A stretch of DNA of 64,000 nucleotides from Nemertoderma westbladi (taxonomy: Eukaryota > Animalia > Xenacoelomorpha): NCBI GenBank assembly GCA_032718475.1, contig JAUCBJ010001698.1, forward strand, positions 1 through 64,000. The letters are read 5' to 3'. Shown piece by piece: positions 22,201 through 49,793 of the stretch. The notes beneath the pieces were generated by a model that ran no database searches, was not told where the DNA came from, and was given only the letters and a program-made list of their open reading frames with translations. The position numbers were made by a program, and so were the translations under genes. Each line of letters begins with the position of its first letter. The stretch's first letter is position 1.

Positions 22201-25200
22201 CCACTGAGCAGACGTTTGAAGGGCTTGAGATGATCCCAAAAGCCTGGATGGTCATCCAGTACTCCACCGGTTTCTGATTGAGGTCTCCTTCAGGCCACCA
22301 CAGAAATCGTAGGCTGTCGCGATCCCTTTCCAGCGCCTTAACTTGTAAGAACATGCCTTCTATATCCGAAGCAAAAGCAATCGAATATTGTCGTAATCTT
22401 AAGAGTATTCCCAACAAGGATTGGAGTAAGTTGGGTCCAGGCAATAACTCGGAATTAAGTGATTAGCCCATGTAGAGGGCGGAGCCGTCAAATACTACAC
22501 GGACTTCATGGGGTTTACCGGGTTTGGGAACGTAATGATGTGTTAGATAGTACGTCCTCTCAGTTATGGGTGTTTCTTCCGGTACTCGCTCCGCGTATCC
22601 TTTGTTAATAAATTTCTTCAACTGAATCTTGTACATTTCCTTAGCTGAAGCATTTGCCGTAAGGCGTCGATGTAGTTGCGCAATTCTTTTCTCCGCCAAG
22701 GGTCGGTTGTTTACGAATTTAGGTTCCCGTTTTCGAAATGGTAGACCGATTTCATATCTACCTTGATCTTTAAGAAAACGTGTAGTTGTCTCCTGGATCT
22801 GTTTGGCTCTTTCTTCTTCTACCGATAGGGCCTTATCGTAGGAATTGGGCTCTACGGCCTCTTGAGTAAAGAATCGTACGGCGTGTTCATCCCGAGTTTT
22901 CACGTTGTAGCGATCTATTACGTCATTCAGTTCGTCGTTATAGTTGACTTGTCCTGATGGACGAATGAGTTGACATAGGTTCACTTGGTTTTGCCAAGTT
23001 TCGTTTTCCGTAAGGAGGTCGATGGTATGGTGTATGGTGTTCCCTCAGTTGGGTCATCCACCTCACTGCTCTCCACTTCCCATCACTTACTTGGTAGACC
23101 CGTTCTTTGGGTAATCTTTCCATGAGAGTTCTACGGGAAGGGCCAGTAAAGTACCAACCTACTCTAGTTCTTCCCGCATAGACTTGTAATGGTTGCGGTT
23201 GAGCACGCCGTTTCTCCAATGTCTCAAGCGCCTCATGCGCATTTTGGCCGATGAGTATTTGCACTCCAGGGTAGTCTGTGTTCAATCTAGGTATCTTAAG
23301 CTGCTGGGTGCAATCATCCTCGTCCCAGTTATAAGGTTCCACTTGGCTGGTAGCGAAGTTCTTTATCGCCACCATTTTTACTGACCTTATACTGTGTTCT
23401 CCTAGTTCATCCTGGGGGGTGGACAACGCACCTACATAGTAATCTGCAATTACTGTAGATTTCCAAACCTGCATAATTCCTGACATGTTTAACTTAGTTC
23501 GGAACTTGGGTTGTCCAGCAAAGATGTCTTCGGCTAGTTCTTTGTCGATGAATGTTCCTGTGCTGCCGGAGTCAAGAAGGGCGTTCACTATATAGCTTTT
23601 TCGTGGCCCGTGGACTCTCACCTGCACTACGGGAAATTCTCGGATTCCTACATTGGAAGTTGGTGCTTTCCAAGATGGTTGTCGGTCGGGAGTAGTTAGG
23701 GGGGGCTCACTGTCGGTGTCCTTTTCATACGTAAGTGCTCGATACACTGCGGTATTTATTAGGTAACAGGATTCGTCTTCGTCGGAGAATTCGTCCGTAT
23801 AGAATCCTTCCATCTCAGAACTTTGGTCAGTGTCGTTCACATCACTGAATTGGACATGTAGTTCGGACTCACTTACCTGACTCGGGCTGTTTCGTTCGAA
23901 TTCAGTGTGCAACAAGATATGATGCTTTGCGCCGCACTTGGCACACCTTGCGTCGGAGTAACAGGTTCGCCGTTGGTGTCCTTGTCTGAGGCAATTATAA
24001 CACAACCGCTTATCCTACATGACTTCACGTCTATCTTTTAATGATTTCTTTAGGAATTCATCACACACATTCAAACGGTGGGGCCCGTCACATAGCACAC
24101 ATTTCGGTTTGATGTTACTTACCTTATTCTGAGTAACGTTGTGTACACTCGTTCTTTCCTCGGGCTTTCTTACATGAATTCTCTTAGGAGACGTAGGAGG
24201 AGTTTTTCTTAACTGTTCTCTCCTGTCATTGGTTCGAGACTTGAATTTACCTACGTCTTTAGGCGTTTTGTTGACATAGTAAGATCTTTCAGCTGTCTTC
24301 TTCTTGAGAAGCCTGGCTTTCACCATCGTCGGTATAACACACTGGTGTTACCTTTCTCCTAGAAACGGGTTTCTCACTTACCTTATTTTCCGTTGTCTTC
24401 TCTCTGGACTGCTTTAGGAGCTGTAGTTTTACCTCGCCATCCAAGAATGACATGAGATCAGCCATGGTAGGGTCTCGTCGTTGTTGTTCCATCATATATA
24501 ACACTTTCTTGTCCCAGCGTGTACCTACTCCACCCTTTGGTAAAGTAGAGGCCACAGCTCCAATAACCATAGAACTCTGATATTCATGAGACTTACCTAG
24601 CCAATCTAATTGTCTACAGATCTCCTGAATCTCATCGGAAAACTCTATAATCCCGCTGCTAATGAACTTTCGGGGCGCTACTAATTTTGCATACAAATAC
24701 CTAGCTATGTTATTCCTATTACCATACCTGATATTTAATGTATCCCAAAATGTATCCTAATGTTATCTTTGTAATATTCATTAAAAGGTAACCATTTCAT
24801 CTCATCTCCATTGAACTTGACGATCTCTCCCACCTTTACCGCTTGACGGGCTTCGGTTCTAGCCATTTGACGCGTAAAACTTTCTTGGGCCATCGTATTA
24901 TTTAATATCGAGTTATCGGTATATAAATTTCTCGGATTATGATCAGGTCTATATGGAATATCATTGTCAACAGGTTTATAATTACCCTTAATAGGGTTTA
25001 CTATAGGAGTTTCTACTTCACTAGCAGTATAGATGCGTGTAGGCTCCACACCTTGCGCATGAAATACTTCAGACCTAACAGGTTGACACATTGTTACAGG
25101 GGGTGGTAGTATACCCTTTTGTATATTTACCAATTTATCGCGTTCTAACGCGATATTCTGCTGCACTTCTTGCAACTCTAACCTACTCTCTCTGACTGTT

Positions 25201-27213
25201 CCCTTTAACTGCTGAACAGTCCCTTCCATCTCCCGGACCTGTTGAGAGGAACACAAACGGTGTTCTCTCAGCTGCCTGAGCAGGAGACCCATCTCCCGCC
25301 GTCCTTCTTCCACCCACTCGACCGCCGAAGCGGGAGGCGCCAACATAGTAGCGGATAGACGAGGGACAACGGGCGACAAATCATTGATATTTCGCTCGGA
25401 GTCCAGAACAGGAACTGTCCCAGAGGCAGTTCTGTTGGGCACAGGTAATTTAGTACTGTGCAAAGGGAGTTTAGGGGTAGGTTCCGGGAGTACAGGTGTC
25501 TCTATCACCGAAGGGGTGGCTTCGAGAACAGGCCTAATTATTTCAGGCTCATCTACTATAGTAGGAAGTCTTTTTACTTTTAATTTGGTCTGTGGGTTCT
25601 GTACTACCTAAGTCTGTGCTAGCTAGTTGCCTTCTCACAGTTGGGGGCAAATCAGGCAATTTCTGACAGTGGGGCGTTCTTCTACGCCTGCTGAGAAGAG
25701 ATCTATTTGCTCTGCCTTCAGGATCTGTTGTATCGCCTTCATCCGATGATGAATAGCCCTGTCTCTTGGGGGTGGATCGACTTATCATCTGCATTTGACT
25801 AGCTGTTAACTGCTTATCTATGTATTCTTGCGTCTCTTGCAGATTTTCCAGCTCTAGTTGGGTGGTCTCTTCAGACGCTCTCCTTTCTGCTTCTGCCACT
25901 GCCTCTGCCGCTTTTCTTTCCGCTTCAGCTGCTGCCACTGCCGCTTTTCTTTCCACTTCTGCCGCTTTTCTTTCCGCTTCGGCCACTGCCACCGCCGCTT
26001 TTCTTTTCGCTTCTGCCTCTGCCGCTGCTGCTGTCTTTCTGTCTTCTATACGTTTTTTCTTCACTTGTTCTTCTTGGACTCTAGCGATGCGGAGGCGTTC
26101 ATCAAATTTAGCTTGGTTTGCAGCTAACATTTCCGCATCTATTGCGTCCAACACAAGCTTGGCTCCTTCACTATTAGGGCGAAGTCCAGCCAGCCGTCTC
26201 CTCAACTCTTCATCTCCTAGAAATCTTTGATAGTCTGACAGATAGATGTCAATAGCGTCCCTCGTCTGCGGTTTCTCTGCTGTCGCTTCACTTTCCACTT
26301 GAGAGAAGGTAGCGTATGTTGATTCTCCATGGGCTGAGCGCTCAGCCAACTGAGATTTCCACTGGGTGGTTCCTTGAACTTTGAGACTCACCCGCTGGAA
26401 CCAAGTCTTCACGGCAACTTGCAACGACGTGTCTTGTTTTCTTTTCGAAGCCTCCTCAAAGGCCGATAGGATTAGTCTGATTCTTAGAATTCTTTCTCTA
26501 ACTTGATAAAGCAGCTCTCCCTTCTCTTGAGGTCCTTGGGGTTGTTGAAACAGTTGTTCTTCTAATCGCTCCAAAGAGCTGAAGAATCCCTGTACATATC
26601 CTGCTGCTGACCTCTTCCACACAGCTGGATCACTAGTGTCTTTTGTCACTCCCATCTTGTATATGTCTTCCCAGGCAGCTTCCGATAAGTCAAACGGGAG
26701 TCCGGGTCCGGGGAAGTTCCATTGCGACTCGACAATAGACTTCAGTTCCTCCTTGGTGTATCCCGCATAACTGTCCTTGGTTGATCGCCTACCTCTCGCC
26801 CAATCAATTTGGTGTTCCTCCACCGCAATCAATACCTTAGTGAGTACGGCTGCAGGAAGAAGGAGAAGGGGATCCGAATAAACCGCATCTACCATCCTTG
26901 CTCCGTGTTCGGGTGTCAGCTCTACAGTATCCGAACTACTGGAGCTATCTGGTCGCTGAGAAATAAGTTCTCGGCTCGGGTGTTTCTGCTGTTTGACAGC
27001 TGCTTCTTGATCCCGCTTGACTTGAGCCCGAGTGCCTATGATAGACCTACGGTGTTGGACTAGCCTAGGGTCTGATACTACTACTGGAGGGATGATCTTT
27101 CTTATAGTAGGAGGTGAATTGAACTTCGGTCTCACACATTCCACACTCCTGTCTGGGTCACATATGGTTGTATCTAAGAGACTGTCTGACAGGTTTTGCT
27201 TTGTATCAGACAT
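19244..27213 (-). pseudogene. Element 1 gag-pol (BEL/Pao), disrupted
   Basis: Gag coiled coil, knuckles CYNCLRQGHQRRTC, protease ALLDSGS, RT, RNase H LHVFGDAS, integrase GVDIFGP/SDKGTNF/WERLI. In-frame stops at 24015 and 22463, several frameshifts, and the RT motif reads YMDN. Confidence 0.95.
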
Positions 27214-28572
27214 GTTTATTTGTACAGTTGAATGCCTACTGCTATATTACAGTTAATGCAAGTCTAATAATTCAGTATCAACTGTTAGCCTAGTAATTAA
27301 TTACCGATATCGTTACTCAGTGTAACGTGATATATATACAATATGTTACAATACCGGTATACACTTATAGTATATATATAAGTATTATTACAGACTAGGT
27401 TTGTCACAGAATACCGGTATATAATTTCAGCAAAAATATATAGATATATAATAAGCCTATCGTGAAACAGCTTATACTTATAATATATAAGTATAATTAT
27501 AGACTAGAATTAATTACAGAATACCGGTATATAATTTCAGCTTAGATTTATAGAATAAATATAATAAGCCTATTGTAAGTACCGGTATGTCAATTATTTT
27601 AGAAAAATTGAATTTCTGAATTTTTAAGGGTTACTTAGTTACTTTACTTGACTTTATTACCGTTATTTAAGCAGTAGTCCAACTGATATTAAGACCTAAT
27701 TGTTGTATGACAGGCCTACTATTTTATAAATCGGTTTGAGTTGATTTATAATATATATATACCCGTATAATGGGTTTTGTCAATGTTTGAAATAAATGTT
27801 ATTATTTCTGGGAAGGAGTCACTACACAGAAGCTATACGCTCTCAGTGAAGTGCTACTTGTTGGACACTAAAACAAATAATTCTAATTTGCCTAAGTTAC
27901 TTATTACTACAAATTACGTACAATTGCGGGGTGAGATTACAATCTCTAAGTAAACACAAAAATTACAAGTACGAATTTTTAGGGTAATTTTACAAGAAGT
28001 CTACAAACCAGCCTAACAAAGGGTTAGAATATCTGGTTATTACAACGGACAGGATACTACGGTATTTGAAAATAATACGCAGTAGTAAATATATTGCGTT
28101 GTCCAGATAGGAAAAATACCACCGTCTGACGACTTATAGCCATATCGCTATAAGTACTACGTTATGTTTCACGGAGTGTTCCTACCTAGAAGTTAATTAC
28201 CGCGGCCTACCAGAGCCAACATGCCTATTAACCACTTTACAACATAAATATACTGCCTACACACTAATTACCTTCGGAAAACACTGTACTCTAAACCCTA
28301 GATTAGGTACAAGTACTTGTATAACAAATAACCAGCAGTTAAATATACTTGTACAGCTAAAAGAACCACGGTATCTGCCGGAGTGACCAGAGCACAAAAT
28401 CTCCAGTCTTTACCTACGCCAAGCAGCCCTGATGTAGTACCGGGGTTAATTTAACTATAACGGTATGTATAACAAGCACAATTACTGTAGGAATAAACTT
28501 GGGGTTGTGAATGTTGCGAATAATCGCATAAACTCTGAATAATAAATATTGCGCTACGCGTACAGACTTCTC

Positions 28573-29120
28573 AAACAAAATACAGACAAAACGCTGGCAG
28601 ACCACTATCAAGCCTAAACAAACTACAGTATATGCAGACTCCGAAATGGTTAGTTAGTATGCGTTCTAACCTAGTAGCACGACTTATTCTTTCGGGGGGG
28701 ATTCACCTTACAACTCAAGATGCCCCCACGTTCCTAACTGGTACTTTATCGGACATACACTCTACACACACTGCAACCTCTTCAGACCTAACAACAGCCA
28801 GACAACAGTCCAGCCTACAAATTATCTGAATAAGAAATATTACGCTACCCGTACAGCCTACACAAACAAAATACAAACCAAACGCTGGCAGACTACTATC
28901 AAGCCTAAACAAACTACAATATATGCAGACTCCGAAATGGTTAGTTAGTATGCGTTCTAACCTAGTAGTACGACTTATTCTTTCGGGGGGGATTTACCTT
29001 ACAACTCAAGATGCCCACCACGTTCCTAACTAGTACTTTATCGGACATACACTCTACACACACGGCAATCTCTTCAGACCTAACAACAGTCAGACAACAG
29101 TCCAGCTTACAAATTGTCTG
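28573..29120. repeat. ~256-bp tandem duplication (period ~291) in the element 1 5' leader
   Basis: 28573-28828 and 28864-29120 are near-identical (AAACGCTGGCAGAC...GCAGACTCCGAAATGG...CAGACAACAGTCCAGC). Confidence 0.9.
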
Positions 29121-29398
29121 TACAATCTGAGCAGGCTTACACGCCTTCTGCTCAATATTAGCCTACAAATAAATAAAACTGACAGAAATAAGTAAACCAT
29201 ACAAAGGAATAAGGGGTGATCAATCCCTAATCCCCTAATAGCCTACAATATACAATATATCACAATCGAAATAATACTAGTATCTGTACTGGTGTAAGTA
29301 CCGGTCCGGGTGGTTAGGTAGTTGGGCCTACTGGTTACCGGTCGACCGGTACTTTTCAACTTTATTGCCTACTGCAATAAAGAAGCAATGACTGTTAT

Positions 29399-30604
29399 TG
29401 TTCGCGCTTTCAGACCTTTAGCAGTTTAACCTGCCAAATTTAGGTGTCTTCTAAGTTATAAATCGACTTTAGCCTATGACGAGTATTTGATACACTACAT
29501 TAGCCGAAGCCAGCCTATGCGCGACCATTCACCCGCTGGATATACCCGGGAGACTGGATACGGAAGCTCTGACCTTATTGCGGTGTAGGCCTACTGTATT
29601 ATTCGATTGATCGTTAATATATAATCTCTGACAAATATTATTCACTTTCGGGAAATACTAACAGTTCCTTTAGGACGTGGCGCTCTAAATATATAAACAG
29701 AGTTATGACTTATACTAAACACAACGGGATGGCTAATGATTCACGTATAAGGCGCATTCTTTAGGAGATGCTTTGTTATCTGTCACAGTCATGCACACTA
29801 CCGCACAATGCTGCACACCGATCTGCCGACCTTCACTAATTTTAGTCACATATAAAGAGAACAGCAATTGACACCTGTAGTGCCTATGAAATAGCATTAG
29901 ATTCACTCCAAAACCAATATCATATAAGTCGCAATTGCTATATGTAACCGGTCTCTTACCTTCAGTATATCAAGAAGATGGGGTTTTATGATTATTTATG
30001 GATATTATCCAAATATAACAATATTCCATCAACAGATACAATTAATAACCGACAGTAAATAGCAGTAAAATAATGCGGTGAAAGGTATGTATAGCATTTG
30101 AGTCTGACCAGTTTGGTTTGATATGTGCTGACTTGATATGGTTTGATAACAGTTATACGTTTCGGTAATCAAAGCCGTTCTAATGTTTGGCTAAAGTCTG
30201 AAACACAGAATAATTCCATAGCCGATGTTCTGGCATCAGGAAAAAAGGTAAACATAAACCATAATGCATTGCGCGATTTCCCGGAGGCCTCTGTGCAAAT
30301 AAAATGAAAATCGCTCTGATTGGTCGAGTGAGTGAACAGAGTGAGCCTGAACAAAGAAAGCTCCACGAGTACACTAAATCAGCTGATAGATGTCGTAATC
30401 TGAACTACACTGTATTAAGAGTATTTTGGCGCATTGCGACACAAAATGGCTTGTTATGTCCGCCAAAGTACACATACAGAAAAAACAGCTTTTTATGTCC
30501 GCTAAACACCGATACAGTAAGAAAACGGCTTTTTATGTCCGTTATAACATCTACAGAGTACTTTGCAGGGAAAATGACTAGCTAATTCCGCAAAAGCCTT
30601 TACA
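29399..30604 (-). repeat. Element 1 5' LTR
   Basis: Copy of 12226-13431, followed on the plus strand by TSD AGGCC. Confidence 0.97.
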
Positions 30605-32298: not shown

Positions 32299-32946
32299 CC
32301 CTATCTGGCTCGGGCTATATTTTACAACGTAATTGGCCCGGGGGGCTATTTTACAATTTTTTTAGATCTTAGCTCAAAAATTACAATTTTGATGGGATAA
32401 GGGTTTTTGAGGTCGCTGATCACAATAAAAATTGTTAAAAATATTTTCTGTCAATGCAAACATCATTTTTGATGCTATTTCGGTCCTCCAGGACGAAAAG
32501 TACAAGTAAAAAAATGTCAAACTAAAAAATTTTGTGTTTGGTTTGATAATTCTGAAAGTATACGGATTTTAGATGTCCCTGGTCCCAATGAAACTACAGT
32601 AGTTAAAGATTTCTGGTAATGCAAACCCAATTTTTTTACATTTCTGGTGCCCCAGAACGAAAATTACAAGTAGCACACAATTATAAAGTGTTAAATTTTG
32701 CCAGAAGCTGCACTGATTTTCAAGGTCGCTGATCACGATACAACTCGTTTAAAATCATTCTTGGTAACGCAAATATCATTTTTGGTGCTTGCCTGGTGGG
32801 ACGAAAAATACAAGTTTAGTATAAAATTTCAAACGGCAAAAATCGAATTTGTTTGGATAATGCGATATTGTTAAGTGTCATATTCGTAATCAGCGTCCCA
32901 GAAAACACATAATGTATAAAAATGAGGTTGATTTGGTAATGATGTT
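32299..32946. mobile_element. TTAA/CCCT-ended MITE-like element, interrupted by LTR element 2 and resuming at ~51740-52010
   Basis: TTAA-CCCTATCTGG start. Sub-repeats (GCTGATCAC, CGAAAA..ACAAGTA) recur inverted on both sides of element 2. The right TIR was not found. Confidence 0.55.
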
Positions 32947-34890
32947 TATAGAATTATATTCTCTAAATGCCGTGGATTTTCAAAATTTTATTTTATTCGA
33001 ATTAACTTTGTAAAAGATTGCTTTGAATCCTCATTTGTATTTGTTATATCTATTGTACGCCTATTGGTCAAGTGGTTCAGTAGCTCAGTCGGTAGAGCGT
33101 TGGAAATTATATGTGTAGTAGGTATTGAGTTCGAATCCTAGTAAGAGCGAATTATTTTTTGTGCAGAATTTCAACTCATTTAAATTAACCGCTACAAATT
33201 AATTGCATTTGTCTGTACCAATGAGACTGTAGTTATTTGATTGTAACCAATGTCGTGCAAGTTATATATTAGCTGGACCAATAGCTATCTTTAAAACCCT
33301 GTTAGAACCTATAGAACAATCGAGAATTTTCTCGATTGATTGCAGCACAAATTTGCTATATAAAGGTGCGATTTGTTCATTAGTTATTCAATCTTCAATC
33401 TTATACATCTCAGTATTTACATTCATTATCTCAGTGCATTCTATCTATATCTTTCTGATCTTATTAGTTATTATCTTATCTGTTTGATTTTGTAATAAAA
33501 GTTAGAAATACTTGTCAATCTCAGCCCTTTTCTATCTGTTTTACCATGATTCACTACGGTGAACAAACCTAAGGGACAGGATGGCCGGCCAGAGATCGGG
33601 CCGCAGCAATGAACGGGAACATCGGGGGAATGTAGACGAGAGACAACCCGCAATACCATCTTGAGTTATTCGCCCATCGCCTGAAAGGTTAGACAGCGTT
33701 CGACGCCTTGCTACCTAAGTATAAGACCAAAAGATCATAAGGTAGAAGTAGTGGCACGCTGTGAGCCTAAAATTACATCTTAGGGACTGTACTGTCTTGA
33801 TTCAGGAAAAAACCACAGTAGACCTTCATATTCCTACGGGGGGGGGGGAGAGCGCAGGCAGATACTAGTACGCAGATAGGACGTAGGCACACCGGTACGA
33901 AGCATACAAATTGGTAGGGTGCAGCAAACTGTACGCCTAACTCTTGCTAAGTACAGGTGTGTGTGCGACTATTTGTAGTACGACAGTGTCCATTGCATTA
34001 GAACTTGTAGGCTAGGGGGGTTGCTGTGTTTTCACCTGAATTGGGATTGTACCGTTCAGGCGGTAGGGCAGTTTACAGCTAGGCGCAAATAAATTGAGGC
34101 TATTAGGGATACTAACATCTACCGTGTCCCCGCCAACGCCCAAATAGGAAGTTACCCGGACTACCTGGGTGACTAAAATTCTAGATAGGAGCCAGGATAG
34201 CTATTAGTAACTGTACGCCTACAGTAGTAAACTAACACATCTCTTCTTAGTATCAGGGACCTGGTACCTAAAATTGCCGAATTCTGGGCGTAGCATTAAC
34301 CTTATGCCTGAATTTGAGTCCTGGAAATACGCAAGAGGGGAAGGAACCTTATCATTCGTGAGTATTGGACCTACAAGTTACAAAATTAGAATATTCGTAA
34401 AATGCACACCGTACCCAGTAATTATATATGTGAAGGAGCAAAACTGTCTTTGACCGTTCAGAATTAACACACGCGCGTTAGAAATTATTTACACCTCAAA
34501 ATATATAAAATTAACTTTCGTCCGTACTGTGCTTTGCCCGCTAGTTAGACATCTCCAAATCTCTGCCTGTGTACCTAGCTAGCGTCCTTTCGCCCAACCA
34601 TATAAATCACACCGCGGCAAAGTGTACGAGCCTCTTAGTCCGTCAGTGAGTCAGCCTGATTTTAGGATTCGCTGCGCGGGATTTTGTTTCACCGAAGTTT
34701 GTCTGCTCGTAGACTGTTTTCTGCCTCACCGGTTATAAGAGATCAATACTGCAATATATTCGCTTACTTAGTTTACTGTTTTGGTGAGAAGGTCGGATTT
34801 ATGATTTGATTCACAAACTTTACAGTAGGATATTGCAGGTATTGTTACTGTCTCTTCCATATAGTAGGAATAGGCGTATCTCTTCCAATA
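32947..34890 (+). repeat. Element 2 5' LTR (1944 bp, TA...TA ends)
   Basis: Identity with the 3' copy starts at TATAGAATT and ends at CTTCCAATA. TATATAAA at 33357; AATAAA at 33494 and 34088. Confidence 0.95.
33074..33160 (+). promoter_or_regulatory. tRNA-derived Pol III cassette in the LTR (second copy 49921-50007)
   Basis: A box/D-arm TAGCTCAGTCGGTAGAGC, B box GAGTTCGAATCC, T6 terminator. Acceptor and anticodon stems do not pair. Confidence 0.7.
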
Positions 34891-35740
34891 GTAGGAATAT
34901 GATTATTTTAACATATTTCCTAGAATAGTAGGAATATGTTTTACTGAACTACGGTTCGGTAGGACTAAAGTTATTTGAAAATTTTGTATTTTGAGGTAAA
35001 AATTTATATTTGATTAGCTAAGTGCTAATATTTTGAAAAAAAAAAATTTGATTTGAACCGCGTGTAAAATATTTTGGAATTGAATACCGGTGTTTAAAAA
35101 AGGGTTTAAATACCATATTGTACCGGTACAAAATTTTTCGTAAAAGTAAAACCTAACTCTTTTGTTTTTCAGGATTCAGAACTCATTTCTAGACTGTAAC
35201 GGGAGCAAGACCGTGTTTAGCAAGTTTGGGAGATAGATAACTCAACAACTTTGGTTGGGAAAATCGCGTTTCGTCCGCAACGTTAAAAACGGAAAGGTTC
35301 ACGTCCGGTTTGTATCTGGGAATCTGTTTTTCTGGAGAATTATTGGAGTGGGTGAGTTCAAAAAGTTGCATAAATAAGTTAGGCATTACCGTATTAGTTA
35401 AAATTATTGTGGGTTCCACTGTCTCAAGTATTTATGCATTCCGTATGATTTCTTTGTTCATTGCTGAATTAGTCCGTATTATTGTATTTAATTTACCTTT
35501 TGATAACGCATATCGTTATCCGATTTATTTGTTATAAAATTGGCCACTAGGCTAATTTTATTATATACTTATTCCGTGACATTTATTTGCTGTAAAATTG
35601 GCCGTTTAGGCTAATTTTATCCATCTGCTATAAAATCGGCCGGTAGGCTAATTTTATAAGACTGTAATTAGTACCGTTTAGATAAAATACGGTAAGTTTG
35701 ATACTTTGACACTCACTTTACTTGACTTACAACTACCGAA

Positions 35741-38700
35741 ATGAGTGACAAACAAAACTATACGAAAAATACACAAACCGACTATGACTCATGTGACGCG
35801 GATAAGTCAGCAGCGGAAGAACAACAGGGGAAGACTCGCGAGCCTACCGAACCTACACCGTGTGCGTCACCAGTACATCCAACGGGAGTACCGGATGCCG
35901 TAGTACGAGGCGACGGCAGGACCAAGGACTTTCTAACTGTTCCGCAACCTAGATACAGGGAAACGGACATGGTGAGTTCAGCAGGAAGTCAGGAAAGCGT
36001 TGTTAGGAGCGTCGGAGGATACATGGCGCATATTACCAGGAGTATTGGAGAAGGCCAATGCGTATTAGACGAGTTGACTGCGCCGATGTCTCGATTCGAG
36101 TTCTACACCCTCCAGGTGAGAGTACAGAGTAAAGTATATAAGTCCGTAGATAACCTAATTGGTCTACAAGATCTAGCTAGACAGAGACAGGACATGGATA
36201 CTCAACTTAGAATCCTCGAGAAACTAATGATCGCTAGAGAGAAACTGATTCAGTTTAAGTCGACGATTAGACACATACAACAGGAACAAGCGGACCAGTT
36301 GTTAGGTGAGTCAGTTTCGGACGAATTATTACAGCCCGAGGAAGAACAGGAACTGTACCGACTGGATGGACAATTGAAACATCTGACGGACCACTTACGT
36401 ATGTGCGGCGAAGACGTCGGCGATTCGGAAACCGTACCGGAATATACGAGGGAAACTTCACCCGTACGAATCGAATCGGCACCGGGAATACTGGACCAAT
36501 CGTTAGTGAGTATTCGCAGCGAAATTGGCGAGATAAGTATAGTGACGTCAGAAATTTCCAGACAGCAACAACAAGTGGATAGACAACAACGGGAAGCGGA
36601 GGAACAAGCTCAACTGTTGACGGCACAAGGAGCCGTACAAGAAGAAAAACTACGCGTTGCGGATGTTGCAAGAATCTCTCATCTGCAAGAACAAGCCGAG
36701 TTGGAAGCGGCTGAGATGGAAAGGTTGGAGCTAGAAATAGCACAGCGAACAGCGGCAGCTGAGTTAGCGCAACAAGCGGCAGCAGCTGAGTTAGCGCAAC
36801 AAGCGGCAGCAGCTGAGTTAGAACGACAAGCGGCAGCAGCTGAGTTGGAAGAACACAAGCGAGTTTCGGAAGCAAGAGCTGAAATGAAAAAACGGCAAAT
36901 AAAGGCTCAATCAGTGATAAGACAAGCGGAGCTCGAGGCGCAACAACGACAGACGGAACAACGCGAGAAGGAAGTTAAACTTCATTTCGAACTCGGGAAG
37001 AAGGCGAGAGAATTAGCCAACGCGAAGGAAGATCTGGATCTGCAAGCCCGCGATCGATCAATGAGATCTCGAGACGGACATGACTTGGACCAGATAGAGG
37101 TAAGACATCGCCAAATTCAGGAATGGAAGAAGGAAGGAAGCGTAGGAGCACCCGGACGGGAACGACAATTAGTAAAGGACTTGTGTCAACGATTCCCACA
37201 GGTAACTCATATGTTTGCACCGGTTACGACTAAGGAACCTGTTTCGATTGCGGGTAGTAGTAACATTTATCCTATCCATGGTGCGACGGAACACAGGTTT
37301 GTTATTCCGGACGAGTTTACACCGCCAAGAGCAACGTCGTCGCCTATTCCGAAAGTCAAGGTAAGTAACCCACCGATTACAGATCGTAGTAGTTTATTAG
37401 TCGAACCTGTATTACTGACGACTAAACAGGTGAGTCCACCTCTGACGCCAAAACCTGTTACACACTACGCTTACCCAATGACGTTTAGGCCAACAAGGCC
37501 TTTGGATTCAAACGCTGTTACTCGACCACCGGTTCAGTTTACATCGCAATCTACGACTTCGAGGAAGACTTGTGAGCCTACCGAACAACAGAGAACAGTG
37601 GATACGCGACCGTTCAACCAATTTACATCGCAATCTACGACTTCGAGGAAGACTTGTGAGCCTACCGAACAACGGAGAACAGTGGATACGCGACCGTTCA
37701 ACAAATTTACATCGCAATCTACGACTTCGAGGAAGACTTGTGAGCCTACCGAACAACGGAGATCAGTGGACGATGTTCCAAAGCGAAACGTTAGAATTCG
37801 TACGACGCAATGGACGCGAGCACGTCGACCACCATATCCAGATGATAGTAGTACTTCGAGCGAATCGGATTACCCGAAACGCGAGGTATTTAGAACAGGG
37901 GCGGCCGATGAATACAAACGCGAGCGTTCAGACAACTCCTTTGTAGACAATCCTCCACAGAATACACCAACACAGAAGGCGTTACAACCAACGAGGCAAA
38001 TCAGTACACAACAGTTCGCCGACATCCTGCGACCAGTTGTTAACAAGTTGGCTCAGATCGAGGAGCGTCTGGAGGAAGTTCAAACCGACAGTTCGAGGAA
38101 CACTGAGTTCGAACACAATAGACACCCGAAGGAACCACAAAGACCGGTACCTTCAAAACACACATCGTATCAGGGAAAAGCGCCAAGAAGGGAGAATATC
38201 AACCTGGTTACCAACCAAGGACGCGAAACTCTGAACGTTGCCGAGGAGATAGCGAAATTCGCAGCCAGACAAGGATTGCCGGTACAACAACCACCGAAGT
38301 TTTCCGGTAGCTCAAAACACTGGCACACTTTCGTAGACTATATCGAATCCCAGATCGCCATGTGCGCCTTTACATCACGGGAGAAGTTCAATTACCTGCT
38401 CCAAACGTTGTCAGGAGAACCTAAACGTTTGGCAGAGACTTTCGTCGGTGTACCGGACGCCTTCGAACTAGCGTACGATCGTTTAACTTCGATATATGGA
38501 GGTACAGTCAGTATGGCCAGGTCAGTAATAGAGGAACTCTGTAAGGGAGGGGCTATCACTAAACCCGTCGACTTATTAAAACTGGCCGACGAGATAAAGA
38601 ACGCTATCACTACTTTAAGATCCATTGGACAACTTGACTACGGGAATACCCCTACAGTCCTATTAAAGATCATAGGACGACTCCACCATCGACTTCGTCG

Positions 38701-41700
38701 GGAGTGGAGAAAGATCGAATACCAGCGAGAAGAGCGGGGTGGATTCTTAAAACTAGAGGATGTGTACCTTTTAATATCCAGGGAGGCAGTAGTAGAAACT
38801 CGATCTAACTACACTGACCAGCACATCGTGGCAGAAGGAATCACATTGCCATCCTCCAACCGACAAAAACCCCAGACAACATCCACTAAGACGGCCACTT
38901 ACACCACACCGACGGAATCACGACAATTCTCGGACGGTAGTAGGGTATCTGCGCCCATTGGGACAAAACAGACGAGACAACAACTCGGTACCGACTTCAG
39001 CGGCTGCCAATACTGCGAGCATCTAGGCAAGCGGTATATCGGTCACAAGTTGAGGGGTTGTCGACAGTTTCGCGAGTTGAACTCGGAAGAACGACGGCTG
39101 CAGATACGGCCACTGGACTCTTGTTGGCGGTGTACGCGACACGGACACGTCCGTAAAGATTGCCCAAATACCGACACTTGTCCATCCTGTGGACGCAACC
39201 ACGACGGTCTGCTCCACACAGACAGCCACACACCGACAAAACGCTTCGCCAGGGAACACCCGGAAGCAGCAGCGAGATGTGATGCGGCCTACAGAAAACG
39301 AGAATCGAAAACGACTCCAACCTTCGTGACCCATATTGAGGATTGCTTCTCAGAACAACCCGGATCGTCGGACGAAGAGTCAGAAGACGACGACGTATAT
39401 TCGGATGGAGATGAACAGCCATCGATCGCGCTTCTGACTACTGACCAACTAAAGGGATTTAGTGTAATTCCGATTAAGATTACCGGCACAAAGGGGAGTA
39501 AAAGAATCTACGCGATTCTAGATTCAGCCTCATGTCACAGCTACGTGGATGAAAAGATAGCTGACGTCGTGACGGATCTCAGACAAGGTAAGCGCGTCAG
39601 TTATACCGTAAGTAGTATGCACGGACTACGTGCAATACCAGTGACACGAGTCAAGTTAAACTTAGACTCTCTTCTTCCGAAATCGCAACACAGCGAGAGG
39701 GAGAGGTCTTTGTTACCCTTCAAGGATTTGACCTTTGCGGCCACAAAAGACTTTAGTAACCTACTAGGTCCGGTCCCAGAACAATCCTTGGAGGACCGTA
39801 AGTATTTCAGACACCTTGGTGTACCAGAATGTCCTGTCAATTATAGATCGGTAGCCATGCTGATCGGGACAGACCAATTCAACCTACATCAAGTGTGGGA
39901 AACCAGACCATCGGCAGTCGTAGCGGGAAACGCATACGCCTGCAGAACGCCGATAGGGTGGTATACTCGAGCGCCTGTGCGCACACTGGACATAAGTGAA
40001 GAGGAAGACGATGTACGAAGTACATGTAGTTTATTAACTACAAATTCAATTCATTCCTTCTCACACGACGTGAACCATACTACACTACAGTCGACAAAAC
40101 GTGACAGACGTGTAACTAGTATGATAAGTCACAAGGAGCAGCTAATCCACCAGCGGAGTTTAGAACTTGGGGAGAAGACGAGTCAGCTAGAGATTCCATC
40201 GACGACAGATGATAACGCCGGAAGGCTTGCGAGTCTACCTACCCCAACGACATCAACAATGCCCGTCGAGATCGATGATGACGCGTTGAGAAATCATCAA
40301 ATGGAACAAGCTGCACTGGACAAAGAATTAACGGAGAAGACTATCAGGTGGTTAGAACAAGATACAGCTGAACCTGGTAGCTACGAACCTTGTATGTCGG
40401 AACAGGAGAAACAATCTCTGAAGATCATGGAAGATACTATCCGACAGACGGAGGACGGACATTATGAGGTAGGGATGTTATGGCGTAGCCAAAGTCCTAA
40501 ACTCACAAATAACTATCCACTGGCTTTAAGACGTCTACACTCAATACGGCAACGTCTATTAAAGGACGAGAAAGCCCATCTGCAGTATAACACTCAGATG
40601 GAGACGTATTTGACTAAAGGATACGCTATCCGAATGACTAACCCAGAGATAGTGACTGACCAAACATATTACTTGCCACATCACTATGTGAGACACCCCG
40701 ACAAACCAGATAAAGTACGCGTAGTCAATGACTGTGCGGCTCTGTTTGAGGGAATGTCCCTCAATAGTGAGTTGATGGATGGACCAAACATGAATAATTA
40801 TCTTATGGGGGTGATTATGCGCTTCCGTCAGCGTCAAGTAGCTTTTACTTGTGACGTTGAAGCGATGTTTCACCAAGTGAGAGCGTTAGAGCGAGACAGA
40901 GACAGTTTGCGGTTCCTCTGGTACCTGGAAGGAGACTTAAGTCTACCACCGGCGACTTACCAAATGCAAGTTCGCGTTTTCGGTGCCAGAGACAGCCCAA
41001 ATTGCACGATGTACGCCCTAAAACAAGCCGCTAGAGATCAGAAACATCTATATGACCCAGAGATAATTAAAATCGTAGAACGTGACTTTTACGTAGACGA
41101 CGGATTACAGAGTTGCGACACAGTAGAACGTGCTACAACAGTAGCACATCAATTACGGGACTGCTTAGCGGGCGGAGGTTTTAACCTCACCAAATTCGCC
41201 TCAAACAGTGCCGAATTAGTAGACTCATTCGGAACGACTGAGCGTGGAGGTGGTGACATAGACCTAGAGTTCGAACCACTACCGACGACCAAGGTGTTGG
41301 GGCTCTTTTGGGACCCAAACACGGACAACTTCCGAGTGAAAGTAAGACTGGACAGTCAAGAAAACACACTGACAAAGAGATCATGCTTGTCAAAATTGAG
41401 CCGATTGTTCGATCCGTTAGGATTCATCAGTCCAGTAATACTGCAAGCCCGCATTTATATGCGCAGTATTTGGAAGGATGGACTAACATGGGACGAGCCG
41501 ATCTCATCAGACCAAGTGGACTTATGGAAGACCTGGGAGGCGGAATTATCTTCGCTAGAGGATTATTCCATACCCAGAGTTTACTTTCCATTACAAAGTA
41601 CATTTCCTGACAACTTGGAACTACACTGTTTTTCTGACGCCAGTGACAACGGTTTTGGTGTGGCAGCGTACTTGCGCAGACAAGTAGACTCAGAAGCATT

Positions 41701-44494
41701 CGATGTTTCGCTCATTACTTCTAAGGCAAAAACAATGCCTACTAAGTATATGACGACACCACGAGCTGAGCTACAAGCCGCAACCCTGTCAACCACCATC
41801 GTGAACCTCATACAGACAGAACTACAGTCAAGTTTACAGATATTTTATTGGACTGACGCGACGTTGGTTTTATTTTACATAAACAACGACACGCTTGAAT
41901 TCAAGACATTCGTAGCTAACCGTCGCGCAGAAATTCTAGATCGTTCAATAAAAGAGGATTGGCGACATTGTCCCGGACCACAAAACCCAGCTGATATTGC
42001 GTCGCGAGGAATGATGCCTGAGGAATTCTGTAAACCGGAAAACAAAGAATTTTGGCAACACGGACCCCAATTCTTGCAGAAATCGACGCAAGATTGGCCA
42101 CCGTTATGCGACAACAAGTCTAACACCATCCCTAAGGACGCCGAAATCAAGAAACCAAAAAAGGGGAAGGCAAAGAAAAAGACGACGGCGGCAAAACTCA
42201 AGAAAAAACCGAAGGCGAAATGGAAAGATATAACTTCAAAGGTCAAGAGAGGAAGACTTGCGAGCCTTTCTACACCAGACATATCGCCAGACGGTCAACC
42301 AGACACGTTACTAGACGGTCAACCAGACGTTTTGTCAGACATATCACAAAATGTTCTACCAGACACTAGTAACATATTGACAAACAGTAAAGCCGCAGCT
42401 TCCCTATTGGAGCGGCCTTCTGTTGACAAACAACCAGATACGTTACCAGACGTATCGCCAGACACATTACTAGACAGTCGACTAGACATTTTGTCAGAAA
42501 CATCACAAAATGTTCTACCGGACATTAGTAATGTATCGACTAACAGTAAAGCCGCAGTTTCCCTATTGGAGCGGCCTTGTATTGACAAACTACCAATTTT
42601 GACACACTTGAGCAACCATAAGCATGGTGAAACCTCATGTATTACAGATGTGGGTAGTACCTACGCTAATGTAAATACAGGTGTTACTCTGCGCTCAAGA
42701 GACATACCAAACTTGCAACCTATGGTGAGACCTGGGATTAATATCGGCAGAAAAATAAGCTTACCGAAACCCACTGACCCCATAGAGTTCAAACCACCAT
42801 TAACGATCGACTTACAAAGTACTGACAATCAAGGTAAGAAGACGAAGAAGGACAAATTACTTGTAGACCCGGATGGATCAACAGTCAACAAGGGAATACT
42901 TACCGGCGGACCCGTGGGCCCTTCTAGTAATTCAAAACCTTCCAAATTCTCCATTGACTTACCTGATGACGTCACAAATACTTACGTCGACCGTATTGTA
43001 AACCTAACAGATTCTTGGACGAACGCTTGCCGAAAATTAGCGTGGATTGTACGTTTTGTACAATACGTTAAAGGCAAACGCGACTTTACACATCGACTTA
43101 CATTGGCTGAGATTGACAGGTGTGAGATTAAATTAATTCGCCATTACCAACTGCGATATTTCGCGCGCGAATTCACATCTATAAATCAAGGTCAACCAAT
43201 CAAGTCGTCACCAATACTGAGTTGGAGTCCGATTATTTATAATGGCTTAATTTGTCATAAATCTCGGCTTCAAAACATTGACTTTAACACAAACTTTAGG
43301 TACCCAATAATAATACCGCAACATCACGAACTACAACGTGCAATGATACTGGACGCACATTTACATCTGAAACACGCTGGAAGACACCACTGTCTTTCCT
43401 ACTTACGTACAAGATTTGTATTAATTAGACCCAGTAAAGCGTTAAGTTCAGTGACACGTACGTGTATTATTTGTAAAAAGGTACATTCTAGAATAGGTAC
43501 CCAAGAAATGAGTGAACTTCCACAAGCACGACTTCAAGCATTCAGACCACCTTTTACAGAGACTGGAATTGATTGCTTTGGTCCCATACATACGAAACGT
43601 GGACGTATACTAGTAAAACGCTGGGGACTGATTTTCACATGTATGTCCAGTAGGGCAGTTCACATTGAACGTGTGATGGATCTTTCCACCAACGCGTTTA
43701 TACTAGCACTGCGGCGATTTATCGCTAGACGCGGACTAGTGAAATGCTTGTACTCAGACCAAGGGACAAACTTTGTTGGTGCTCGAAATGAGATTGCTAG
43801 AGCCTTTAAGAAATTAGATCATGATCAAATCTCGAACGAACTGCAACCTCACAAGATTGTTTGGAAGTTCAATCCTCCAGATAGTCCTTGGAGAGGCGGA
43901 GTCTGGGAGAGATTGATTAGATCTATAAAGACGGCAATGGCAAAGGTCATTCCAGTAAACCACATATTGACAGATGACCAACTGACGACACTGTTTGTTG
44001 AAATCGAGGCAATACTAAATACTAGACCAATAGTATTAGTACCCGATGACAAACAATCTCAGTTCGCTTTGACACCGGCACACCTGCTTATGCAGGCACC
44101 GACCATATTGACACCTATTTCTATTCCAATAGAAAGCGACAGCTACAGTAGAAAAGCGTGGAAAATCACGCAACTACTAGCTAACAAATTCTGGGAAATA
44201 TGGCAAAACCATTATTTGCCCTCTATTTCTGCCAGAACAACATGGTACAATAACACCCGCGCATTAAAGCCGGGAGATCACGTGCTGTTAGCGGAAGTGA
44301 ATCTAAAAAGACGCTTCTGGATAACAGGTGTAATTTTAGCCACACATCCATCTATGGATGGAGTGACAAGAACTGTGACGGTACGGACAATTGACGGTCG
44401 TACAGTAGACAGACCGACTCAACGTCTCGTACTTCTTGAAGAGACTCGTAACGAGTCTGGAGACTACAAATCTCCACCTAATACTAGTAAATAA
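35741..44494 (+). CDS. BEL/Pao Gag-Pol polyprotein, 2917 aa
   Basis: Single ORF: coiled coil, Gag (PPKFSG), CCHC knuckles, protease AILDSAS, RT FYVDDGL, RNase H CFSDAS/PRAEL/YWTDA/NPADIASRG, integrase HHCC, GIDCFGP, SDQGTNF, WERLI. Confidence 0.98.
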   Translation: MSDKQNYTKNTQTDYDSCDADKSAAEEQQGKTREPTEPTPCASPVHPTGVPDAVVRGDGRTKDFLTVPQPRYRETDMVSSAGSQESVVRSVGGYMAHITRSIGEGQCVLDELTAPMSRFEFYTLQVRVQSKVYKSVDNLIGLQDLARQRQDMDTQLRILEKLMIAREKLIQFKSTIRHIQQEQADQLLGESVSDELLQPEEEQELYRLDGQLKHLTDHLRMCGEDVGDSETVPEYTRETSPVRIESAPGILDQSLVSIRSEIGEISIVTSEISRQQQQVDRQQREAEEQAQLLTAQGAVQEEKLRVADVARISHLQEQAELEAAEMERLELEIAQRTAAAELAQQAAAAELAQQAAAAELERQAAAAELEEHKRVSEARAEMKKRQIKAQSVIRQAELEAQQRQTEQREKEVKLHFELGKKARELANAKEDLDLQARDRSMRSRDGHDLDQIEVRHRQIQEWKKEGSVGAPGRERQLVKDLCQRFPQVTHMFAPVTTKEPVSIAGSSNIYPIHGATEHRFVIPDEFTPPRATSSPIPKVKVSNPPITDRSSLLVEPVLLTTKQVSPPLTPKPVTHYAYPMTFRPTRPLDSNAVTRPPVQFTSQSTTSRKTCEPTEQQRTVDTRPFNQFTSQSTTSRKTCEPTEQRRTVDTRPFNKFTSQSTTSRKTCEPTEQRRSVDDVPKRNVRIRTTQWTRARRPPYPDDSSTSSESDYPKREVFRTGAADEYKRERSDNSFVDNPPQNTPTQKALQPTRQISTQQFADILRPVVNKLAQIEERLEEVQTDSSRNTEFEHNRHPKEPQRPVPSKHTSYQGKAPRRENINLVTNQGRETLNVAEEIAKFAARQGLPVQQPPKFSGSSKHWHTFVDYIESQIAMCAFTSREKFNYLLQTLSGEPKRLAETFVGVPDAFELAYDRLTSIYGGTVSMARSVIEELCKGGAITKPVDLLKLADEIKNAITTLRSIGQLDYGNTPTVLLKIIGRLHHRLRREWRKIEYQREERGGFLKLEDVYLLISREAVVETRSNYTDQHIVAEGITLPSSNRQKPQTTSTKTATYTTPTESRQFSDGSRVSAPIGTKQTRQQLGTDFSGCQYCEHLGKRYIGHKLRGCRQFRELNSEERRLQIRPLDSCWRCTRHGHVRKDCPNTDTCPSCGRNHDGLLHTDSHTPTKRFAREHPEAAARCDAAYRKRESKTTPTFVTHIEDCFSEQPGSSDEESEDDDVYSDGDEQPSIALLTTDQLKGFSVIPIKITGTKGSKRIYAILDSASCHSYVDEKIADVVTDLRQGKRVSYTVSSMHGLRAIPVTRVKLNLDSLLPKSQHSERERSLLPFKDLTFAATKDFSNLLGPVPEQSLEDRKYFRHLGVPECPVNYRSVAMLIGTDQFNLHQVWETRPSAVVAGNAYACRTPIGWYTRAPVRTLDISEEEDDVRSTCSLLTTNSIHSFSHDVNHTTLQSTKRDRRVTSMISHKEQLIHQRSLELGEKTSQLEIPSTTDDNAGRLASLPTPTTSTMPVEIDDDALRNHQMEQAALDKELTEKTIRWLEQDTAEPGSYEPCMSEQEKQSLKIMEDTIRQTEDGHYEVGMLWRSQSPKLTNNYPLALRRLHSIRQRLLKDEKAHLQYNTQMETYLTKGYAIRMTNPEIVTDQTYYLPHHYVRHPDKPDKVRVVNDCAALFEGMSLNSELMDGPNMNNYLMGVIMRFRQRQVAFTCDVEAMFHQVRALERDRDSLRFLWYLEGDLSLPPATYQMQVRVFGARDSPNCTMYALKQAARDQKHLYDPEIIKIVERDFYVDDGLQSCDTVERATTVAHQLRDCLAGGGFNLTKFASNSAELVDSFGTTERGGGDIDLEFEPLPTTKVLGLFWDPNTDNFRVKVRLDSQENTLTKRSCLSKLSRLFDPLGFISPVILQARIYMRSIWKDGLTWDEPISSDQVDLWKTWEAELSSLEDYSIPRVYFPLQSTFPDNLELHCFSDASDNGFGVAAYLRRQVDSEAFDVSLITSKAKTMPTKYMTTPRAELQAATLSTTIVNLIQTELQSSLQIFYWTDATLVLFYINNDTLEFKTFVANRRAEILDRSIKEDWRHCPGPQNPADIASRGMMPEEFCKPENKEFWQHGPQFLQKSTQDWPPLCDNKSNTIPKDAEIKKPKKGKAKKKTTAAKLKKKPKAKWKDITSKVKRGRLASLSTPDISPDGQPDTLLDGQPDVLSDISQNVLPDTSNILTNSKAAASLLERPSVDKQPDTLPDVSPDTLLDSRLDILSETSQNVLPDISNVSTNSKAAVSLLERPCIDKLPILTHLSNHKHGETSCITDVGSTYANVNTGVTLRSRDIPNLQPMVRPGINIGRKISLPKPTDPIEFKPPLTIDLQSTDNQGKKTKKDKLLVDPDGSTVNKGILTGGPVGPSSNSKPSKFSIDLPDDVTNTYVDRIVNLTDSWTNACRKLAWIVRFVQYVKGKRDFTHRLTLAEIDRCEIKLIRHYQLRYFAREFTSINQGQPIKSSPILSWSPIIYNGLICHKSRLQNIDFNTNFRYPIIIPQHHELQRAMILDAHLHLKHAGRHHCLSYLRTRFVLIRPSKALSSVTRTCIICKKVHSRIGTQEMSELPQARLQAFRPPFTETGIDCFGPIHTKRGRILVKRWGLIFTCMSSRAVHIERVMDLSTNAFILALRRFIARRGLVKCLYSDQGTNFVGARNEIARAFKKLDHDQISNELQPHKIVWKFNPPDSPWRGGVWERLIRSIKTAMAKVIPVNHILTDDQLTTLFVEIEAILNTRPIVLVPDDKQSQFALTPAHLLMQAPTILTPISIPIESDSYSRKAWKITQLLANKFWEIWQNHYLPSISARTTWYNNTRALKPGDHVLLAEVNLKRRFWITGVILATHPSMDGVTRTVTVRTIDGRTVDRPTQRLVLLEETRNESGDYKSPPNTSK
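37533..37772 (+). repeat. 84-bp (28-aa) tandem repeat, ~3 copies, inside gag
   Basis: QFTSQSTTSRKTCEPTEQQRTVDTRPFN repeated. Confidence 0.95.
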
Positions 44495-45156
44495 TTAGGA
44501 GTTTACAAATAGATTTCCACGTACCTGTACACCGTAGTAAGGACAGCGGTAGAATTCCATTGTCTTTATATGTGAACATTGAGGGTAGTACCCTTATGTG
44601 TCATATAGGAGCGGGATTTGTAGGTATAAGAAATGGAATTCTACTTGGAACTCACAATATTGAGACATTTTCGAAAATTTAGACAATCCATTTGGATTTG
44701 AAAAATTTTTAAAAATTTTCTCCAGTGAATAGATTTCAGGGTACAGTCGGGTGGAACTTAAAATTAGAGAAACAAGAGAGGAAGACTTGCGAGCCTTTCT
44801 TAAAATTTTTAATTAAATTTTACACGGTCTTGTTTCAATAAGTTACGTCAAAATAGACTCCCCTATATTTATTTACTAATTCTTGACTGCTTATTTTCTG
44901 ATAATAGTTTGGGATCAAAAAGTGAGTATTTTAGACTCACAGCCAGTTTAGCCCAAATTCGTTTTTATTTCGGCAAAAAATTTTAGATAAGAAGCAGCGT
45001 GTCATTAAAGAAACCCTAGATCTTAGGCTATGGGTAGGAGGTTAGAGCGTTGTCGAGCCCAAAGGGCAGACGAAACTCTCACGTCTCCTCACAACTAACT
45101 ACAAACTCTGTTGTATTCCCTCTAGTAGTAATGATTATGTAACTACACCCCTAATT

Positions 45157-48100: not shown

Positions 48101-48882
48101 GATACATCTCCGCTATGCCCCAATATGACGAACTTATCGAGGTTGTCGATATTTTGCCCCACGACAGCGGATTCCGAGTGGTGCGCAAGTATCTACTACA
48201 GATTCACCCGGATAACAAAAACACGTGGAATTTTCAGAAAGTCGTTAATCGCATTACGTATGGTGAATTCGATCGTTTCCGAACCGAAAGGCGGAACAAA
48301 GGAGCTTGGTTAACCGTCGCATGGGCGTACCGAGCCGCGTTTTACCATAAACGTATACGAGCGAGCGTATTCGAGGAAGAGGAGGTCCTAGAGGCGACAA
48401 ATATACCAGCCACTCCGGTTGCGCTGTCTGCACGTCACCCTCGGGAGGACGGGCAGGGTAGGATCATACGGGTCCAAAAGGTGGGCCAACAATTAAAGAA
48501 AATTATTAATGTAGAAGAACGCAAGGGAGTTGAGCCGACTATTCGAGTTACTCGGGATACGGTATCACTTCCAAGAGAACCAGTAGGAGGATCGGGACAT
48601 ACACCAGCTGATCAACAGGGGGCGCAAGCTACTCTTGGGTCTGCGTCGTCCGCTTCTCGCGTGTTCCCAGACGTTCTACCAACTGTAGTGACGACTGATC
48701 GGTCACGAGGAATCGGTCGAGGTTTTGGGATGCCAAATAGACGAATTTGCGAGGAAATAGTCGCACCGTCTCTCAACGTCCCAAGTAAACCAGTGACTCG
48801 CCCCACGAGTCCCATATCGCGAGCAAAGTCACCTGTGCGCAGTTTTCGAGGACGCGGCAGGGCTCGATCCACTAAGCGATAA
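45157..48882 (+). CDS. Element 2 extra ORF (ORF3), ~1241 codons with one in-frame TGA (45610-45612): DEDDy 3'-5' exonuclease, 3 CCHC knuckles and a basic tail
   Basis: ExoI FYDNEG (46561), TIQIRA, ExoII LPKMVRNMILDKTVVKIGSGVREDL, YVDTR, ExoIII-like YYLAIES. Knuckles CSKCGVAGHHMTKC, CGWCGDQGSHTFYTC, CTYCNIKGHRASEC (47752-47931). Confidence 0.85.
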
Positions 48883-49793
48883 AAGGGAGGGCAAGGGTGG
48901 ACGGAAGACTCGTGAGCCTTTCTTATGATTTGTGATTTATTTGAATTTATATTTATATTTGTGTTTATTCCGAACTTAAGCAATTTGTATTGTTCCGAAT
49001 TTATGAAATTTAGAAAGTTTATATTTAGAAGGAACTTATATTTGAAAGATTTATGTTTCATATTTGAGATGCAAAGGAGTTTATATTATTCTAAACTTAT
49101 GCAGTTTATATTTATATTTAGTAAGACTTATATTTGTAAGAATTTATATTTGTGATTATTCCGAACTTATGCAATTTATATTATTCCGAACTTATGCAAT
49201 TTATATTGTTCCGAATATTATGCAATTTATATTTTATAAGCAGTATTTGTATTTACAGTGAAATAGAAAGTAAGAGTAGATGGAAGACTCGTGGGCCTTT
49301 CTTATAGTTTCATTTGTAAAGTGTTATATTTTGTATTTAGAAAGTTTTATAGTCAGAAAGTTTTGTGCTTAGAAAGACTCATATTTGTAATTATTCCGAA
49401 CTTATGCAATCTACATTTAGGCACGAAAGTGTTTGTAATTATTTGAATTTATGCAATATTTGAGATGCAATAGTAGATGGAAGACTCGCGAGCCTTTCTT
49501 ATTGTTTTCATTTATTTGTATTTGTAATTGTTTGAATTTATGCAATATTGAGATGCAATAGATTTATATTGGTGAATTTAATTTAGATTTATATTGTACT
49601 TACTTAGTAAAGCCTTAAATACGTAAAGTTTGAATTTGTAATTATTTTTGTATCGAATCATTACGTAGAAAGGAAGTATTGTTTGAAATTTAATTGTAAA
49701 TATGTAAGTACGCCCTAAGTATTCTATAGTTTGATTGATTATTGGTGAAAACCGTATATTTATGCACGATAATATCCTGTTTTCATGGAGCGG

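Follow-up and report, generated by a model that had tools for sequence, protein, structure and literature searches.

A BEL/Pao insertion and its neighbours

Self-comparison of the window (the whole 64-kb stretch of DNA analysed here) revealed a BEL/Pao insertion of 18,788 bp, called element A below, with LTRs at 32947-34890 and 49794-51734. The two LTR copies are 99.64% identical over 1944 alignment columns, the differences being four substitutions and three G in one run. The features that delimit the element and its coding content are the following.

32942-32946, + strand: left copy of the target-site duplication ATGTT, abutting the 5' LTR
32947-34890, + strand: 5' LTR, 1944 bp, with TAT...ATA ends, not TG...CA
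35726-44494, + strand: open gag-pol frame of 2922 aa with DUF1759, Peptidase_A17, Integrase_H2C2 and DUF5641
45046-48882, + strand: extra frame after pol, split by a stop into 188 and 1089 aa and carrying CCHC knuckles
49787-49793, + strand: short purine tract directly before the 3' LTR
49794-51734, + strand: 3' LTR, with the second copy of the 12-mer described below at 50673-50684
51735-51739, + strand: right copy of ATGTT, abutting the 3' LTR

The LTR identity, the ATGTT at both outer ends and the purine tract together establish that element A is a young, recent insertion with LTRs bounded as listed, and its gag-pol frame is open. On one contig of run X1, the purine tract is joined to the LTR start. 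The 2922-aa frame contains PF03564, PF05380, PF17921 and PF18701, which assigns it to BEL/Pao, and its best protein matches are 39-44% identical with an identical domain set. Within BEL/Pao, Suzu/Sinbad is no more than a candidate branch label for the element, the RT tree being free of named branch members. The TAT...ATA ends, which an earlier note on this DNA had missed, sit beside a clean target-site duplication. A tandem array with a 43-bp period occupies 52046-52727, just beyond the 3' LTR.

A second BEL/Pao element (element B) lies at 12226-30604 on the reverse strand. It is 18.4 kb long, with LTRs of 1206 bp that are 99.25% identical and a duplication AGGCC. Its frames are broken by stops and shifts, its pol is 42-44% identical to that of element A, and the two group as sisters, with support 93, in a quick RT tree that was used for neighbours only and in which both stand on long branches. 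Another LTR (LTR C, 62862-63920, reverse strand), whose element leaves the window, is about 70% identical to the LTR of element B. The same purine tract precedes it, this tract being common to elements A, B and C. Non-canonical LTR ends were also seen in LTR C, which begins with TAT, and in a related element, L031, which ends in TA (L031:13980).

The extra frame is common to elements A and B, the homologue in element B (about 13940-16010, reverse strand) being 27.6% identical over 744 aa. No database homologue was found at 598-1906 aa, no Pfam match at 1e-3 and no useful PDB match. The frame was not recognised as env, and the ESM Atlas gave a weak lead only (0.85), to 3'-5' exonuclease and CCHC proteins. 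Since it is encoded in none of the 94 related loci surveyed below, the extra frame is not needed for the pairing signature described in the next sections.

Pairing of the 5' LTR with the site that follows it

The features of element A that bear on the start of reverse transcription are listed in order of position.

33218-33390, + strand: predicted main promoter from a motif scan, with CCAAT at 33218, 33247 and 33278, TATATAAA at 33357 and the initiator-like TTAGT at 33380
33494-33499, + strand: AATAAA upstream of the primer, overlapping a weak donor-like GTAAT at 33492
33826-33837, + strand: candidate self-primer of 12 nt, TCATATTCCTAC, contiguous (no intron), at LTR position 880 and followed by an 11-G run
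34088-34093, + strand: AATAAA downstream of the primer, in the same place as the poly(A) signal of relatives
34864-34872, + strand: 9-nt copy of the PBS motif, in U5
34891-34902, + strand: putative primer-binding site (PBS) without TGG, at offset 0 from the 5' LTR end
34911-34940, + strand: predicted leader hairpin, whose arm 34911-34922 pairs with the third motif copy (probability 0.81-0.99)
34928-34938, + strand: 11-nt (third) copy of the PBS motif, in the leader

The earlier note had proposed that element A carries, instead of a tRNA-type PBS, a perfect complement to its own LTR that starts right at the LTR end. All three points are borne out: no TGG follows the 5' LTR, 34891-34902 is the exact reverse complement of 33826-33837, and the offset is 0 given the LTR bounds set by ATGTT and the purine tract. 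Both 12-mers are unique in the 64-kb window, save for the 3' LTR copy of TCATATTCCTAC at 50673. The rarity claimed for such a match (~1e-4) is in line with our values of 1.9e-4 by LTR base composition and 1.1e-3 when six offsets are allowed. An exact complement in the LTR of element A was found for 4 of 14,831 internal 12-mers and for 25 of 45,088 other 12-mers of the window. The published criterion for a self-primer, as worded in the accessible passages of PMC6317226, is at least 10 nt located 0-5 nt from the LTR; element A has 12 nt at offset 0. The copies of the PBS motif at 34864-34872 and 34928-34938 had been overlooked previously.

ARAGORN detected no tRNA gene anywhere in the 64-kb window, and Rfam gave no match in 32900-35800. 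In U3, a tRNA-like A-box/B-box pattern, perhaps SINE-derived, was seen by eye at 33072-33148 and is called by neither ARAGORN nor Rfam. A spliced primer was considered for element A and rejected, as no acceptor abuts the 12-mer and junctions do not lengthen the match; the best spliced alternatives reach 9 nt exact, or 11 nt with a G-U at offset 3. The contigs of run X1 (RNA origin only guessed; 26% of words) span neither of the two 12-mers and show no joints within the LTR of element A.

The motifs reported previously (TATA at 33357, AATAAA at 33494 and at 34088) are all present. A transcript start near 33826, as the earlier note had claimed, is not upheld: the predicted strong promoter, with its three CCAAT and the TATA at 33357, lies about 470 nt upstream, in agreement with the caveat of an alternative upstream start that accompanied the claim. 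The match of TCATATT to the initiator consensus YYANWYY is real but uninformative, and the initiator argument was rejected because 17 such sites occur in the LTR and the consensus is found at the primer start of none of the 18 other elements checked. The primer need not consist of the first bases of the RNA, since a TATA box, in the 6 of 17 relatives that have one, lies 31-240 nt upstream of the paired stretch.

Two aspects of the LTR layout count against self-priming in cis. The AATAAA at 33494 precedes the primer by 332 nt, an arrangement seen in none of the 14 relatives examined, and if used it would stop cis priming from finishing; an intron with the weak GTAAT donor could remove it. In addition, 1053 nt separate the primer 3' end from the LTR end in element A, versus 44-216 nt in relatives. 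A second set of TATA-like and TCAGT sites can be read at 34503-34650, downstream of the primer. RNA from these sites would be primer-less, like the short Tf2 transcript mentioned in the available part of PMC5341516.

Folding predictions depend on the 5' end of the RNA. For RNA starting at 33800-33826, the 12-nt duplex is predicted with a probability of 0.98-0.99. With a longer leader it drops to 0.25 (start at 33790), 0.007 (33770), 0.015 (33750) and 0.002 (33387), because the 12-mer and the G run then pair near 34004-34017; this counts against the pairing in a long RNA, long-range folding predictions being unreliable in both directions. The PBS itself is predicted to be free, since the competing arm 34911-34922 is occupied by the third motif copy.

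The corresponding sites of element B are as follows.

29388-29398, - strand: site after the 5' LTR of element B (29399-30604, - strand), without TGG
30146-30156, - strand: stretch of the element B LTR facing that site (8 nt paired, one mismatch, 2 further pairs)

The match in element B is contiguous and spans 8 nt in the window copy; it is shorter than in element A, and this shortness counts against self-priming. Run X1 contigs differ from the window copy inside the primer site. The site of one such contig would pair over 11 nt with the window LTR, the contig's own LTR being uncovered. Two joints were observed in run X1 on element B, neither with splice ends. Element B thus offers weak support at best for self-priming. 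The LTRs of B and C share donor-like and acceptor-like sites late in the LTR (positions 646 and 1174). A primer built in element B by splicing at these positions was rejected, as the junction is complementary to nothing in B.

Pairing in related BEL/Pao elements

An RT-RNase H alignment served to fetch relatives: 80 loci from metagenomes and 14 from genome collections, 31-45% identical; no related loci were found among viral contigs. A direct repeat flanks pol in 48 of these 94, and in 24 the repeat pair fixes the LTR end. The final set comprised 21 elements after L023 and L048 (duplicates) and L032 (partial end) had been left out. Contiguous and spliced pairings were both scored, with a GT[AG] donor, a YAG acceptor, an intron of at least 50 nt and an offset of 0-5. 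Five loci (L082, L083, L088, L089 and L091), each a full or almost full BEL/Pao element, come from contigs labelled as bacterial MAGs; these are most likely mis-binned animal DNA.

None of the 21 relatives with mapped LTR ends has TGG after the LTR, and 15 of them have a complement of 10-15 nt in their own LTR. Among the controls, 10 nt were reached in 9/525 downstream leader windows, 4/525 shuffled sites and 0/21 reversed sites. Under stricter splice filters (15 relatives with elements A and B), at least 10 nt were paired in 12 of 17 own pairs versus 11 of 272 swapped pairs, and in 4 of 850 leader windows; all 11 matching swapped pairs came from families with near-identical sites. In every case the duplex stops within 0-4 nt of the LTR end and has the correct polarity. 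In 14 of the 15 cases the pairing forms only across a predicted GT-AG intron, with a GTAAGT, GTAAGC, GTAAGG, GTGAGT or GTACGT donor and a pyrimidine-rich acceptor. The remaining one, L076, is contiguous like element A, while its neighbours in the quick RT tree, L059 and L025, are spliced.

Six of the 21 relatives stay below 10 nt and count against a general rule (L071, L083, L029, L075, L079 and L091). L071 and L083 are each one letter short at the visible junction. In L029, L075, L079 and L091 the LTR ends defined by the repeat pair lack a terminal CA, and in L029 13 contiguous nt pair at offset 8. For 11 further loci whose LTR end is not known, 12-49 candidate ends were tried for each, and at least 10 nt were found in 10 loci, nine of them spliced; this search was post hoc, includes two duplicates and was kept out of the counts.

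The earlier note had suggested covariation in related families as a check. These families are indeed devoid of a tRNA-type PBS and retain the LTR-PBS pairing with altered letters. Joint change on both sides, by 2-4 letters, was seen in 6 of 8 family pairs compared: three letters in L059/L076, two in L059/L088, L076/L088, L082/L089 and L021/L072, and four in L044/L061. One letter changed in L017/L066 and none in two L011 pairs. No close family of element A was present among the loci found, and covariation bears on its 12-mer at the level of the clade. What the sequences show directly is the pairing, its placement by the LTR end and its polarity, the loss of TGG across the clade and the joint change on both sides.

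These data bear on three other explanations. The match could be due to chance, or be a by-product of short repeats at the LTR end, the tRNA site having decayed or escaped recognition. The local repetition of the PBS motif, the mere 8 nt reached by element B and an LTR layout in element A unlike that of relatives all point this way. They are set against a chance probability of 2e-4 to 1e-3, a young element with its 2922-aa frame open, and relatives that uniformly lack TGG and mostly share the arrangement; we judge this explanation very unlikely.

Alternatively, the pairing might have been selected as a structural switch (for PBS shielding, translation, dimer formation or packaging) while the actual primer comes from the host, for instance as a tRNA fragment. 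The three motif copies and the competing hairpin arm around the LTR end would suit such a switch, as would a predicted pairing that hinges on the 5' leader. Moreover, no cleavage was observed, and half-tRNA primers occur in Ty1/copia elements according to passages of PMC6317226. A fixed host primer, however, would forbid what is seen in the relatives, namely a site that varies by family and tracks the letters of the LTR, and this change from family to family argues against a half-tRNA primer of the copia type. The constant end of the duplex at 0-4 nt from the LTR end, in the right polarity, also speaks against a switch, which we regard as unlikely.

The third possibility is priming in trans, in which a second element RNA (dimer partner or short LTR transcript) would provide the end at 33837, the template would stay whole and R would be 33387-33515. 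It would account both for the distinct CCAAT-TATA-AATAAA unit that precedes the 12-mer and for the low predicted cis duplex in long RNA. Yet 13 of 14 relatives carry a poly(A) hexamer after the primer and none of the 14 carries one before it; this is the layout that strand transfer needs and that the cis route requires. In PMC7175516 and PMC5341516, Tf1 and Tf2 are also described as priming in cis. Priming in trans therefore appears to us distinctly improbable.

Proposed mechanism and comparison with known systems

Taken together, the pairing data make it likely that element A self-primes its reverse transcription in a Tf1-like manner, and that this trait was inherited within the clade. The earlier note had inferred an independently evolved self-priming mechanism. 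Self-priming itself is supported by the pairing in relatives; an invention by element A itself is not supported, because the trait is common to relatives that are 37-43% identical in RT, mostly across an intron.

Cis self-priming in element A could proceed as follows. The RNA would start in the 5' LTR, upstream of 33826, and 33826-33837 would fold onto 34891-34902, the predicted leader hairpin keeping the competing arm busy. The RNase H of the element would then cut after 33837, as it does in Tf1, so that the new 3' end sits on the first base past the LTR. Extension by RT from there would cover U5 and whatever part of R follows the cut, before the jump to the 3' LTR. This jump would need an RNA end downstream of the primer, probably from the AATAAA at 34088, with the AATAAA at 33494 bypassed in the 3' LTR. 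Unlike the first-bases primer of Tf1, this primer would probably form the 3' terminus of a capped leader of greater length.

For most relatives, it would take host splicing of the LTR intron to create the primer. Element A is probably an intron-less derivative, since intron-less forms (A and L076) are expected from copying of spliced RNA or a spliced 3' LTR. We lean, with somewhat less assurance than for self-priming in element A, towards a wide animal BEL/Pao clade that does without tRNA priming. In this clade the spliceosome would join a primer split by the LTR intron and RNase H would free its end, so that splicing would gate reverse transcription; element A would be an intron-less offshoot with a ready-made primer in a long leader and a hairpin switch beside the PBS.

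If true, these proposals would explain the absence of a tRNA site from such elements and provide a stringent annotation test for LTR ends, and the spliced form would tie host RNA processing to the onset of reverse transcription. Element A, young and with gag-pol still open, would be the counterpart lacking the intron, and the predictions for it are single coordinates: a cut after 33837, poly(A) after 34088 and bypass of 33494.

The ICTV profile of Belpaoviridae (Semotivirus; PMC8742986) describes genomes of 4.2-10 kb with LTRs of 0.2-1.2 kb and an 18-nt PBS for tRNA-Arg or tRNA-Gly with host-tRNA priming, and calls the replication of the family poorly understood. Element A resembles the family in its LTRs, PR-RT-RH-IN gag-pol order, BEL/Pao Pfam domains, purine tract and target duplication. 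It differs from the profile in having no tRNA site, a length of 18.8 kb, LTRs of 1.94 kb, TAT...ATA ends and an extra frame. By its proteins element A is a BEL/Pao element and, as read from its sequence, departs from the stated tRNA-priming rule. Neither self-priming nor a spliced primer turned up for BEL/Pao in the openly searchable literature, repeat databases and most subscription papers lying beyond the scope of the search. In the text available by term, no PBS or priming passages occur in PMC554778, PMC3118150, PMC6238403 and PMC2996953, generic ones only in PMC8220671 and PMC3601003, and BEL is absent from the priming passages listed for PMC3286476.

Hairpins near the 5' end have been proposed as a stand-in for the PBS in the PBS-less fungal GalEa copia elements and bivalve TRIMs, in passages of PMC6934838. 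As presented there, they are local inverted repeats of the internal region, whereas element A has an LTR-to-PBS duplex.

Tf1 offers a close parallel. The 11 bases at the start of its RNA are paired with the PBS, and RNase H cleaves between bases 11 and 12 (PMC7175516); self-priming is demonstrated for Tf1 and Tf2 and proposed for Tj1 in PMC4600332. Like these Tf1/sushi (Ty3/gypsy) elements as described in these two papers, element A has no tRNA site, and a stretch of its 5' LTR complements the site after the LTR. Its domains are those of BEL/Pao, not of a Ty3/gypsy polyprotein, and element A is not a member of Tf1/sushi. It also differs from Tf1 by pairing over 12 nt and by the location of the paired stretch, which begins 880 nt inside an LTR of 1.9 kb and is remote from the predicted start. 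In its relatives, unlike in Tf1, the paired stretch is split by a predicted intron.

Outside Tf1 proper, self-priming is predicted, in the accessible portion of PMC6317226, for the plant Ty1/copia TAR lineage (Houba, Osr-1) and Tcn1 chromoviruses, which implies that it arose more than once. These elements share the sequence-based self-primer criterion with element A; they belong to other superfamilies and hosts, and the portion in question mentions no primer intron. Self-priming in BEL/Pao is likely to be independent of that in Tf1/sushi, and the BEL/Pao clade would, if the present reading is true, be the third LTR superfamily with self-primers.
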